In this document: piece by piece, positions 457 to 14,968 of the stretch
Layout of the letters: every line of letters begins with the position of its first letter
Position numbering within the stretch: position 1 is the first letter of the stretch
Assembly: GCF_006345805.1 (NCBI RefSeq)
Contig: NW_021824863.1
Coordinates: 1 to 17,367, forward strand
Direction: 5' to 3'
DNA: 17,367 nucleotides
Source: Octopus sinensis
Taxonomy: Eukaryota
Program-made: the position numbers and the translations under genes
The notes under the pieces: generated by a model
Told to the model about the DNA's origin: nothing
What the model saw: only the letters and a program-made list of their open reading frames with translations
Database searches by the model: none

Positions 457-501
457 ACACCTGATGAAGGCTGGAGGGTATATCAGCCGAAACATTGTGT
501 T
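457..501 (+). ncRNA. Minimal type I hammerhead ribozyme motif, family A
   Basis: ACAC-CTGATGA-A-GGCTG(loop)CAGCC-GAAA-CAT-T-GTGT. Stem I ACAC/GTGT, 5-bp stem II. The four-copy consensus has a palindromic ACGT helix III; this copy reads ACAT. Confidence 0.75.
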
Positions 502-677
502 AACAACAAACAAGATGAGGACAAATATCCGTCAAATGTAAATAATGTAAATAATGTAAGAAAGAAAAGGATAAAACAATTATGATACATGGTTAAGAAA
601 TTTGTTTCCTTAATATGTGATTTCGGTTTCGATCCCGTTGCATGACATACAAAAACTGATTAAAATGTATTGGAACT

Positions 678-4330: not shown

Positions 4331-4621
4331 TAAATACACACCTCTCCACTTAAAAATGTAGATCCGAGTTTTTATTACAAATTATGATTAGTTTTCCTCA
4401 GGCGATGGTTCGTTAGACTGTCGGAAAATATGGTTATCAGTGTTTGGCTTGACCCCGTCGAGTTTTTACTAAACATTATTCCTTGCCAAAATAAAATGGC
4501 AGTAGAATTCAACTGAGCAGATCACTGGAATATATATATAATCCATTATGGACATTTCTCTCCCCACCCACTACCTGTGTGTGCGTATGTGTGAGTGTGT
4601 GTGTAAATATGTGTATATATA

Positions 4622-4775
4622 TAGTTAATCCAAACATGAAAACTCAAAGAGAAAACACAACGCGAGGACGTGGAACAAGTATAGTATTATTGGACGCTCA
4701 GGAAAGAAGGAAAGAAGGAAAGAAGGAAAGAAGGAAAGAAGGAGGGTTTAACGTTTCGAGCGGAGCTCTTCGTCA
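4622..4775 (-). mobile_element. Fragment of hammerhead-bearing repeat family C (5'-truncated HHR at 4748-4775)
   Basis: Minus strand TGACGA-A-GAGC-TCC-GCTC-GAAACGTT. Shares GTATTATT..GACGCTCAGGAAA with 15381-15406. Confidence 0.6.
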
Positions 4776-4815
4776 TATATATATATATATATATATATAT
4801 TTATTATATAGAAGG

Positions 4816-4866
4816 AGCTTCTACAGGACTAGAACTGTTTCATTCAAAAGAAATCATCAGGAAGCT
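4816..4866 (-). ncRNA. Type I hammerhead ribozyme, family B, mirror copy
   Basis: Minus strand AGCTTC-CTGATGA-TTTCTTTTGAAT-GAA-ACAG-TTCTAGTC-CTGT-A-GAAGCT. Confidence 0.8.
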
Positions 4867-5092
4867 AGTGACAAGAGTTGTTTTGGCATTTATACATTTA
4901 GGCAGGTTTAAAGAGGTGGTGGTGGGGGACTTTTTTGGGGGGTAGGCATGGTGCAAAACTATCATTATTAGGGGAGTGGTCACTCCCCTAATAATGATAG
5001 TTTTGCACCATGCCTACCCCCAAAAAGTCCCCCCCCCACCACCCCTTTAAACCTGCCTAAATGTATAAATGCCAAAACAACTCTTGTCAACT

Positions 5093-5143
5093 AGCTTCCT
5101 GATGATTTCTCTTGAATGAAACAGTTCTAGTCCTGTAGAAGCT
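5093..5143 (+). ncRNA. Type I hammerhead ribozyme, family B, intact core
   Basis: AGCTTC-CTGATGA-T-TTC-TCTT-GAA-T-GAA-ACAG-TTCTAGTC-CTGT-A^-GAAGCT. Stem I 6 bp, stem III 4 bp, short stem II. Predicted cleavage after A5137 (GUA). Confidence 0.8.
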
Positions 5144-5224
5144 CCTTCTATATAATAAATTAATTTACTCTGCTATGTATTGAGTACCTTATTTACTGTG
5201 GTTAACCCCGACTCAACCGGGACC

Positions 5225-5297
<73 letters not shown>

Positions 5298-5609
5298 CAT
5301 GTATATATACATGTAGATGTAGGTACGTACATATATGTTTGTATGTATGCATATATTTTTAATTATCACATTATTGTCTGACAGCGCCCCGCGTCAGGTT
5401 CGTTTCGATTTGTCGGTTCATTCCACTTCTTGTCTCCATTCAATTTTTATATACATATATATATATCCGACATGCGCAATCGAATCAGTATTTATTTAAA
5501 ATAGCCAACTAAGTATCACATTTAATATATACACACTGTCGTATGCCGGATTTTAATTCAGCCAGGCGGCTATACGCAACATCAGAGGATGTTTTCTTCA
5601 ATGTTTTCC

Positions 5610-6674: not shown

Positions 6675-7660
6675 GGTGGAATGTACCAGTGAAGACCTCA
6701 ATAAAATGTAAGCACAACAGACCTGATATAATGATCTGGGATATAGTAGAGAAACGGTACACAATTATGGCAATTAGTTGCTCAGCGGATGTTAATATAA
6801 AGCTGAAGATCAGTGAAAAAGAGAATACCTACTCTGAACTATTGAGAAATCTGCAGTTACTCTATTCAGATTACAGGTTCAGGTTTATATCTGTAATTAT
6901 TGGGCCCTGGAATATGTAACACACTGCCTAAATACGAATCTTGAGAAATTAGGCTTCTCAAAACCAGAAAGGAGAAAGCTAATTCGAAGACTACAGATCC
7001 AGTCCATCACTGGAACTGTAAAAATCTGTAAAACTTTCCAGATGTTTACCATTTCAATATATATGAGCATGTCTAGATACGTAACTTTATGCATGAGAAT
7101 ACATACATACATACATACATACATACATACATACATACATACATACATACATACATACATACGTACGTACATACATACATACATACATACATACATACAT
7201 GCATGCACACATACATACATACATACATACATACATACCTACATACATACATACATACATACATACATGCATGCACACATACATACATACATACATACAT
7301 GCATGCACACATACATACATACATACATACATACATACATACGTACATACATACATACATACGTACATACATACATACATACATACACACATACATACAT
7401 GCATGCACACATACATACATACATACATACATACATACATACACACATACATACATGCATGCACACATACATACAACATACATACATACATACATACATA
7501 CATACATACATACATACATACATACATACATACGTACGTACGTACATACATAAAAAATACCCTGTTGTTGATGTTGAAATTCCAGTGAAGGAGCCTTGAA
7601 TCTAGGTTAGAAACCAGCTCTTTCTCTATTGGGAAGAAATCTTGAAATAAAACTGAACAA
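6675..7660 (+). mobile_element. 5'-truncated RLE-type non-LTR retrotransposon (R4/Dong-like), endonuclease-domain pseudogene plus 3' UTR
   Basis: WNVPVKTSIKCKHNRPDIMIWD..AISCSADVNIKLKISEKENTYSEL..SVIIG/ALEYV..LEKLGF matches the PD-(D/E)xK RLE pattern, with a frameshift near 6905. 3' UTR carries (TACA)n. Confidence 0.85.
7099..7551. repeat. (TACA)n microsatellite inside the LINE 3' UTR
   Basis: Direct inspection. Confidence 0.95.
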
Positions 7661-8782: not shown

Positions 8783-8854
8783 CCTTTCATTCCTGATGAG
8801 AAGATTCCTTTGGAATGAAACCGTGTTGTCTTCGAAACATGTCGAGAGTAAAGG
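8783..8854 (+). ncRNA. Type I hammerhead ribozyme motif, family E, intact core
   Basis: CTGATGA (8793-8799), stem II GAAGA/TCTTC (8800-8804/8829-8833), GAAAC-AT-GTC^ (palindromic ACATGT; cleavage after 8843), interrupted stem I CCTTT-CA-TTC / GAG-AGT-AAAGG. Confidence 0.7.
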
Positions 8855-9865: not shown

Positions 9866-10032
9866 GTACAGTTCTATATTTAAGAGATGAGGAATTATGT
9901 ACATTATTTACATTTGACGGATATTTGCCCTCATCTTGTTTGTTGTCAACATTTCGGCTGATATATCCCCCAGCCTTCATCAGGTGTCCTGGGGAAATTT
10001 CGAACCTGGGTTCTCATTCCTAATACTAATAT

Positions 10033-10106
<74 letters not shown>

Positions 10107-10290
10107 ATAATAATAATAACAATAATAACATCACAAAATACCTTAGGAATGAGAACCCAGATTCGAAATTTCTCCAAGACACCTTATGAAGTGCTAGAGG
10201 GTATATCAGCCGAAACGTTGTGTTAGCAACAAACAAGATGAGGACAAATATCCGTCAATTGTAAATACTGTAAATAATGTAAATAATGTA
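9866..10290. mobile_element. Second family A fold-back element lacking tRNA heads, with 10-bp TSD and one-sided tail
   Basis: About 9899-10023 is inverted relative to about 10143-10290 around a (CTA)n/(AAT)n spacer. TSD CGGTTGTACA at 9856-9865 and 10291-10300. Tail 9866-9898 is on the left arm only. HHR motifs at 9948-9988 (-) and 10178-10224 (+). Confidence 0.88.
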
Positions 10291-10867: not shown

Positions 10868-11171
10868 TTACTTGTGGCCCCCCCTTCCTTTCGGAGGTGT
10901 CTTCAGCCCAACACCAGAGCTGAGGACACCTCCGAAAGGGGAGGCCCCGCCACGTCAAAACGGTAGAGGAGTAGGGGCCGAAACCGGACGTGGTTCCTCC
11001 TGATGATGTCTTGAGCTAACTGGATCCTATAAAGGAGCTGTTGTGGTAGCAGACCACGAAACACGGTTGTAATTCCAGTGCAACTGCGCAGAGTTCTGTT
11101 GTGTTTACGGCACAACGTGTTCAAGTGTTAGTTTTTAGTTAGTCGAGACTGCAGCAACTCGCTGCATAAAA
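10868..11171 (-). mobile_element. Candidate short non-coding, highly structured RTE-dependent element
   Basis: GC-rich island flanked by direct repeat CTGTTATT (10860-10867, 11172-11179). On minus it ends CACAAGTAA, as does the RTE 3' end at 12207-12215. Contains a ~23-26-bp hairpin at 10883-10944. Confidence 0.5.
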
Positions 11172-14269: not shown

Positions 14270-14968
14270 GAAATAAGAAATAAGAACGCACAGAATGGTA
14301 GAAGCCACGGCAACTCATAATAAAAAGGAATACTGGTGGAATGTACCGGTGAAGACCTCTATAAAATGTAAGCATAACAGACCGGATATAATGATTAGGG
14401 ATTGAGAAGAGAAACTGGGCACAGCCGTGGAAATTAGCTGCTCAGCGGATATTAACGTAAAGCTGAAGATTAGTGAAAAAGAGAATATCTATGCTGGTCT
14501 ACTGAGAAATCTGCAGTTACTCTATCCAGATTACAAGTTCAGGTTTATACCTGTAAATATTGAGCCCTGGGATATGTAACACACTGCCTAAATACCAATC
14601 TTGAGAAATTAGGCTTCTCAAAACCAGTAAGGGGGAAAACTAATTCGAAGACTACACATTCAATTCATCACTGGAACTGTAAAGATCTGTAAAACTTTCC
14701 AGAAGTTTATCATTTAAATATATATTGGCATGTCTAGACATGCAACTATATGCATGAGAATACATGCATAAAACATACAAATCTGCACATACATACATAC
14801 AATCATACATACATACATACATACAGACAGACAGACAGACAGTCATATATGAATACATACATACAAAAATACCCTGTTGATGTTGAAATTCCAATGAAGG
14901 TGCTTTGGATCTAGGTTAGAAACCGGCTCTTTCTGTACTGACGAGAAATTTTGAATTTTAACTGAGTA
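14270..14968 (+). mobile_element. Second 5'-truncated R4/Dong-like LINE fragment (RLE pseudogene plus 3' UTR)
   Basis: Colinear with 6675-7660 (EYWWNVPVKTSIKCKHNRPDIMIRD*EEKLGTAVEISCSAD..). Shorter TACA tract. Confidence 0.85.

Follow-up and report, generated by a model that had tools for sequence, protein, structure and literature searches.

How does a palindrome with a hammerhead ribozyme motif in each arm, and a tail on one side only, come to sit within a run of (TA)n? The question is posed by a locus on Octopus sinensis contig NW_021824863.1, of which we analysed a stretch of 17,367 nt (hereafter the window, in whose coordinates unprefixed positions are given). As a preliminary description had seen, two near-identical arms of ~180 bp meet here head to head: 4799-4977 and 4982-5160 agree in 174 of 177 aligned bases and differ by 3 substitutions and 3-4 small, mostly homopolymer indels. 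The left arm (4799-4981, minus strand) is the inverted, tailless pLTR 3' end of what classifies as a Hydra-clade Penelope-like element (PLE) and ends ...TAATAAAT into (AT)n; the right arm (4981-5160, plus strand) is the same pLTR segment in sense orientation. Perfect pairing begins at 4978/4981 with a GT in between, which had been taken for a 2-nt spacer. The parent, however, reads ...TTTGACC/ACTCCCC and the left arm follows it up to 4981, so that the arms overlap by one C: at the head-to-head junction (4979-4981) the GT is not foreign but parent sequence of the left arm, and C4981 is common to both arms, a microhomology of 1 nt. The one-sided tail is real, 67 nt on the right arm only (5161-5227, plus strand), as is the (TA)n on both flanks (4775-4798 and 5228-5309), whose first ATAT on the right (5228-5231) is common to parent and target; no target-site duplication can be read at such a target.

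Could the palindrome have been made in the library or during assembly? The window is the whole of a small unplaced contig and no public DNA contig from four runs spans the centre of the copy, which is why we considered a fold-back artefact at all. The left flank does not mirror the right one, though, and the palindrome is therefore not a read folded back on itself; its tail is one-sided and its arms differ. Moreover, short-read contigs from each of the four runs (4/4) contain the tailless end as a loose end, the 4866/5093 junction dealt with below is found in contigs of 4/4 runs, and the same centre is present elsewhere in the genome (G000), so that an artefact appears scarcely credible. This second centre (G000:C14:23262807, within L084 at G000:C14:23262632-23263064) lies between different flanks and represents an independent insertion with the central junction exactly as in the window; its CCACTCC, which we take to fit an initiator consensus, makes a minor upstream start or a pause site possible. 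The left flank of the window copy holds a remnant of another hammerhead-bearing repeat (4622-4776, minus strand) that ends at TGACGA within the core and has relatives in three further loci (L252, L023, L066). The window palindrome is a real, ordinary Hydra-clade PLE insertion, then, and its interest lies at the level of the family.

The reading of inverted pLTR plus one-sided tail as a PLE insertion, proposed from the window alone, held up in the genome search, which found the parent ORF joined to the tail; two claims made alongside it, that this copy is the best candidate for an active ribozyme and for a recent insertion, found no support (see below). Right arm and tail gave 1,358 first-look candidates in G000, and the 40 that were scored are all 95-100% identical. 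An 18-mer over hammerhead core and stem I occurs 3,653 + 805 = 4,458 times in G000, which puts the hammerhead arms of the family at 4,458 or more; the window copy is one of thousands of short scars. Other copies extend upstream through a microsatellite-rich region to the ORF. Full elements continue beyond the tail with ATATCCTAGC..., the ORF starting at an ATG 46 nt on, and the joint between tail and ORF leader is present in 47 genomic copies. This single ORF (~2.2 kb) encodes RT plus a C-terminal GIY-YIG domain and lies after the tail and ahead of the same pLTR end, the pLTR itself being ~2.3 kb long and microsatellite-rich. At L066 the order is endonuclease end, ~2.3 kb pLTR, hammerhead, tail, ORF, pLTR, tail and (AT)n, i.e. 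a partial tandem of the kind that forms pLTRs and is also seen in L076 and L082. Two further loci, L238 (G000:C16:42874800-42878200) and L239 (G000:C9:87419800-87423200), are palindromic tandem arrays of hammerhead units of the window family, ~250 bp and 424 bp long and mirrored about the centre; apparently, these are retrozyme-like arrays born from a PLE.

The parent protein carries RWR (RIRWR), DKT (SDKTK), YRDD, CNCPDKTTC (CxCX5C) and, towards its C-terminus, VY..YIG, CDLC and CMH; an alignment read by eye lacks the conserved cysteine pair (CCHH) in the GIY-YIG core. Of 8,000 candidates that were scored, 1,348 are homologues, with ~40% identity for the best of them. In the Atlas clusters nearest to the protein, RVT_1, GIY-YIG and HTH_animal are present on 13-100% of members, depending on the cluster. 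Local Pfam and PDB sequence scans of the protein returned nothing relevant, and no intact full-length ORF was found in 20 ORF-anchored loci. The pLTR end and some stretches of the ORF are represented in contigs of four presumed RNA runs, material from which starts, strand and level are not readable. Almost every end listed leads into (AT)n or an AT-rich microsatellite, which amounts to a preference for (TA)n. Going by its diagnostic motifs, the window element is best assigned as a 5'-truncated Hydra-clade PLE insertion; the family departs from the tendency of that clade to be "generally shorter than 3 kb", a tendency that is no diagnostic.

A first regularity of the family is that its insertions have two fixed ends. 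The tail is the parent sequence between them, and it includes a TACTC...GAGTA hairpin (5166-5186, plus strand) that one end precedes by 5 nt and the other follows by 41 nt. The hairpin is conserved in a second Hydra family (below) and may serve in recognition by the RT. The tailless end directly joined to ATATA has 942 exact occurrences in G000. When the first 40 tailless anchors by position on C1 (43 matches merged) were inspected for a partner within 8-10 kb, an inverted tailed partner was present in 34/40, a tailless one in 0/40 and none in 6/40. From the junction side, 28 distinct anchored loci include 24 with both ends, and these have one tail in 22/24 cases and two tails in one, are partial in one and are never tailless; at least one insertion thus runs counter to the one-tail rule. 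The tail is found on the long arm or on the short arm, and AT or ATAT is common to the target and both ends. Inserts measure 104-5,443 bp with asymmetric ends, many family members being near 205 bp.

These sizes bear on an alternative already named in the preliminary description, that such copies are MITEs, or more generally that the palindrome itself is mobile, be it MITE-like or copied whole from a palindromic master. The crowding near 205 bp would suit a mobile unit, as would the identical junction on C14, at a locus that is also the closest relative of the window copy among the matches scored. Copies of the family are neither fixed in length nor symmetric, however, the window junction exists in 2 copies only, and the C14 locus differs at a site private to the window copy. 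That one junction should repeat among >2,000 insertions is unsurprising, and the C14 junction, considered as the mark of a palindromic master, was judged compatible with chance. We regard a mobile palindrome as highly improbable.

The second regularity is where the arms begin. In 40 regions on C1, 43/84 arm starts fall at 5091-5099, including 24 exactly at 5093 (in perfect palindromes BLAST ends pile onto 5093 by construction), and the remaining arms reach 4990 or beyond (24/84), break within 4991-5090 (5/84) or start after 5100 (12/84). Position 5093 (plus strand; mirrored at 4866 on the minus strand), where hammerhead stem I begins, is a junction hotspot throughout the family: a single exact, AGCT-centred palindromic junction occurs 231 times, and 805 arms have C or G in place of the genomic A beyond it. 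Taking these together with the 25 T continuations among the 100 W rows listed, ~37% of arms end at 5093. At two loci (L241, L144) one and the same arm stops twice at this point. A TATA box (TATAAAT, 5064-5070, plus strand), a candidate promoter element, lies 29 nt before A5093; its left-arm counterpart (4888-4894, minus strand) is 28 nt before 4866, the spacer having lost 1 nt. The spacing is the same in 111/120 arms, and 114 arms show no variant site in the TATA box and nine in the spacer (5073-5091).

A capped transcription start at A5093 would be the simplest reading of this hotspot. Reverse transcriptases can add a C opposite a cap, and the arms start with C in 82/100 C/G rows listed, the 18 G rows among them comprising 8 upstream subfamily variants, 9 partner joins and 1 other. 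CA, which the partner arm cannot supply, starts 13 of the 100 C/G rows listed, as opposed to 3 unexplained A/T starts across the same coordinates (AC, TG, AG and TC starts fall outside that listing), and at several junctions the extra base is present on both arms. A literature search on C opposite a cap yielded nothing useful, and the extra C may be a terminal addition by the RT instead of a copied cap. Equally, the hotspot may in part be structural, since AGCT is its own complement and a cDNA is able to adopt the complement of stem I. Of 30 copies with tail and ORF, 16 reach upstream of 5093, 5 have their start there or very shortly past it and the other 9 begin lower down, and with >1 kb of ORF only 1/14 starts near 5093; with so few ORF copies starting there, the capped-start model must invoke template jumping. 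In the openly accessible papers searched, a transcription-start junction hotspot is not described for PLEs.

Alternatively, 5093 might be a splice acceptor (YAG, 5092-5094) and the short copies might derive from spliced RNA. The YAG is kept in the main subfamilies, and there is a precedent in Penelope of D. virilis, in which an intron finishes where helix I has its 5' end (PMC4209133). Arms stop at the A of the AG and not after the G, however, no constant sequence that could be a first exon lies beyond 5093 in the 100 junctions listed, a TATA box is present at -29, and the second Hydra family breaks at CC/ATTCT rather than AG, all of which makes splicing a very unlikely source of the hotspot. 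One continuation, 'GGCTGTCAAA', was looked at as a spliced exon and rejected, being upstream sequence of another subfamily.

That second Hydra-like PLE family of G000 (L249-L256, e.g. G000:C12:65808500-65817500) shares ~45% protein identity with the window family, has 2,275 hammerhead arms and near-identical open frames of 721-728 aa, looks younger and offers better preserved ORFs to in vitro work. It repeats the layout of TATA, start site, hammerhead and hairpin: TATAGA is at -27/-28, the ends lie 5 and 42 nt from the same hairpin, and 38/100 arms listed break within 7 nt of CC/ATTCT as opposed to 1 in the next 5 nt.

Do the two arms of an insertion stem from one source? A six-site haplotype is common to both arms in 43/48 pairs (shuffles: mean 11.6, maximum 22). 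The window pair is among the five exceptions, its arms differing at one haplotype site (5111), and has 5007A in both arms, a base absent from 29 other copies. Later gene conversion could also yield shared haplotypes. As for age, the window copy is not the best candidate for a recent insertion that it was thought to be: 22/28 sampled palindromes have fewer arm differences, and its three inter-arm substitutions (sample mean 1.5), a count that assembly errors may inflate, place it in the older quarter of the 28. Judged from its arm sequences, it is nonetheless young in transposon terms.

Near-equal arms, shared haplotypes and the AGCT centre would also be accounted for if a single cDNA, or an antisense template, folded at AGCT or at the stem I complement and copied itself into an inverted arm, much as self-priming on an antisense template has been proposed for rotifer Penelopes in the available text of Arkhipova et al. 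2013 (PMC3846280). Against such a fold-back speak the tail, which is on the long or the short arm alike, and the many strongly asymmetric junctions (L031, L035); centres of perfect AGCT or of 0-1 nt leave a snap-back no loop, some junctions have the extra C/G on both arms, and none of the 100 C/G rows listed shows GGAAGCT followed by CCTTCT, as a snap-back at stem I would leave behind. We therefore think it unlikely, though less so than the other alternatives.

Our own reading of the window copy, which we consider probable, is that two cDNAs were primed from both sides of a (TA)n cut on the sense RNA of one source and joined head to head. The element protein would cut both strands of (TA)n, each free DNA end priming its own cDNA on sense RNA, one beginning at 5227, where the tail ends, and its counterpart at 5160, the tailless site, with the conserved hairpin in between. 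Both cDNAs would run toward the RNA 5' end until they meet a break or the capped start, and microhomology end joining (0-4 nt, with small templated insertions) would fuse them head to head. The commonest case may be that both reach the capped start at A5093, giving mini-palindromes of ~205 bp, a class that priming near the transcript 5' end would produce. Longer arms would result, and the promoter would be rebuilt, if a cDNA were primed within the downstream pLTR or jumped there via the repeated 5093-5227 segment. In the window copy both cDNAs would have gone ~112 nt past A5093 and stopped at nearly the same place, and were thus likely templated by, or jumped onto, a downstream pLTR. Start site, cap-derived C, order of the two priming events and end-joining pathway are the conditional parts of this scheme.

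What, then, is the hammerhead for? Type I motifs are present at 5093-5143 (plus strand, predicted cut after A5137) and 4816-4866 (minus strand, predicted cut after 4822), which bears out the earlier report of one in each arm at the level of the motif. Each has the type I core (CUGANGA, GAAA, UH) and three stems: 6-bp stem I, CUGAUGA at 5099 (plus) and 4860 (minus), GAAA, a GUA site, a 3-bp stem II closed by U.U and a 4-bp stem III with an 8-nt loop. The U.U replaces the G10.1-C11.1 pair, as it does in published Hydra motifs in the available PMC8557442 supplement. The motif arose in 0/3,000 dinucleotide shuffles of the 245-nt arm; Rfam scans matched no hammerhead family, only miRNA models driven by microsatellites. 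Folding, with tertiary contacts left out of account, predicts a full-hammerhead fraction of ~0.04 for 5093-5143, 0.014 for 5085-5150, a construct proposed earlier for cleavage assays in which the hammerhead is not the predicted minimum free energy fold, and 2e-4 for 5085-5160, once a competing hairpin (5134-5152, plus strand) can form, in which the cut site and the 3' strand of stem I are predicted to be tied up. The fraction falls to ~1e-57 in the whole palindrome, and in a read-through transcript both motifs are predicted to be buried in the ~180-bp duplex. Loop III holds the palindrome CUAG and might allow dimers, which are predicted to be more stable (-25.2 kcal/mol, as compared with 2 x -7.6); at the equivalent of 5126, a subfamily variant (T>A) found in 23/184 arms of relatives lengthens the self-complementarity of this loop, which is consistent with dimer formation.

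As an active ribozyme the window copy does not stand out: with all 11 core nucleotides kept in 107/114 sampled arms, it is typical. Variable sites within the hammerhead among 114 arms, taken from loci not picked by hammerhead patterns, lie only at N7 and in loops II and III (3/3, where 13 of the 51 positions are free; P=0.014), which may be a modest sign of selection on source elements. A genome-wide search for a junction hotspot at the cut site found none: 22 arms change sequence there (~6 clean junctions, 7 stem-I microhomology joins, the remainder small indels) in a test that is blind where the next base is T, and it follows that cleaved RNA is rarely a template. At L194 (G000:C5:98103533), a mini-palindrome has both arms ending exactly at the predicted cut site and is possibly a rare product of cleaved RNA. 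Placed right at the 5' end of the putative transcript, the hammerhead likely cuts slowly or conditionally and would be unnecessary for insertion.

Elsewhere in the window, 8793-8850 and 461-510 (both plus strand) are hammerhead-like cores of other repeat families, the core at 461 sitting in inverted arms (41-139/400-498) with a relative at ~9910-10280. A GC-rich hairpin (CCTTTCGGAGGTGTC...GACACCTCCGAAAGG) occupies 10876-10947 beside a CTGATGA at ~11000, and 6675-7109 and 14335-14770 are fragment copies, 87-88% identical, in which (TACA)n comes after a LINE-like C-terminal frame.

Combining the above, we tentatively put forward a broader reading that strikes us as plausible rather than probable: the hammerhead would be the first 50 nt of a TATA-driven capped RNA, on which a dimeric RT-endonuclease primes two cDNAs, from the two ends of a single (TA)n break, at -5 and +41/42 of the hairpin, and these strong-stop-like cDNAs would either fuse or jump downstream. 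Head-to-head fusion would account for well over a third of arms, and jumps would rebuild promoter and pLTR tandem. If so, copies like that in the window are divergent promoter cassettes firing hammerhead RNAs outwards, and such cassettes could seed non-autonomous copies and retrozyme-like arrays. The PLE literature, to the extent of its available texts, names inverted repeats, one-sided tails and partial tandems as mechanistically open. Here, natural products numbering in the thousands within one family give exact coordinates for a putative transcription start, for two sites at which the RT would start and for a hairpin that is a candidate for recognition, in a layout that recurs in a second family only ~45% identical in protein. 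The ~205-bp hammerhead palindromes that resemble MITEs are retrotransposition products.

How does this compare with known systems? In L1 twin priming, both target ends prime cDNA and microhomology joining follows, with the result that a non-duplicated segment is inverted; unlike this, the cDNAs of the window family would both copy the same segment from two fixed sites. Retroviral strong-stop cDNA is short, runs to the cap and can jump through the terminal repeat. Among the C-terminal EN+ PLEs, the Hydra clade in the available text of Craig et al. 2021 (PMC8557442) has in common with the window family RT plus C-terminal GIY-YIG, (TA)n targets, the RW(K/R), DKT, CxCX5C, CxxC and CxH motifs, the ctgatgat...tgaa hammerhead layout and the inverted 5'-truncated copy with a one-sided tail. 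It differs in size (Hydra elements are "generally <3 kb" in total as against ~2.3 kb for our pLTR alone), in tail length (30-40 against 67 nt) and in the hammerhead, ours combining a stem II of 3 bp with a palindromic loop III of 8 nt; that of Hydra-1_Obim is different in sequence. We did not find the family in the literature searched or its motifs in the supplement of PMC8557442, the available text of which may omit some consensus sequences. Non-LTR retrozymes (PMC7229834; 10.64898/2026.07.22.740005), as far as the accessible parts of these sources go, share type I hammerheads and, with L238 and L239, tandem hammerhead arrays, yet the window element is an inverted pair and not a head-to-tail array.

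Closest to our scheme is PAc, the Poseidon of Anolis, for which the portions available of Frangieh et al. 2024 (PMC11167929) describe an in vitro reaction in which the protein cuts the target on both strands and extends both, the tail is set by two internal positions from which the RT starts, the protein is predicted to be a dimer, and the main template is uncleaved RNA, hammerhead cleavage being unnecessary. The coordinates given here are testable with this published assay. PAc start sites, however, are inside the ORF and not homologous to the target, whereas the ends of the window family are upstream of the ATG and have AT/ATAT in common with (TA)n, and those portions hold neither an explanation of inverted arms nor a transcription-start junction hotspot. 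Inverted pLTRs of rotifer Penelopes, in the available text of PMC3846280, resemble ours in junction palindromes, an optional tail and TATA plus Inr-like motifs in the pLTR. There, the explanation is self-priming on antisense RNA; our data on the window family point instead to a pair of cDNAs, both copied from sense RNA and both halting at its 5' end.
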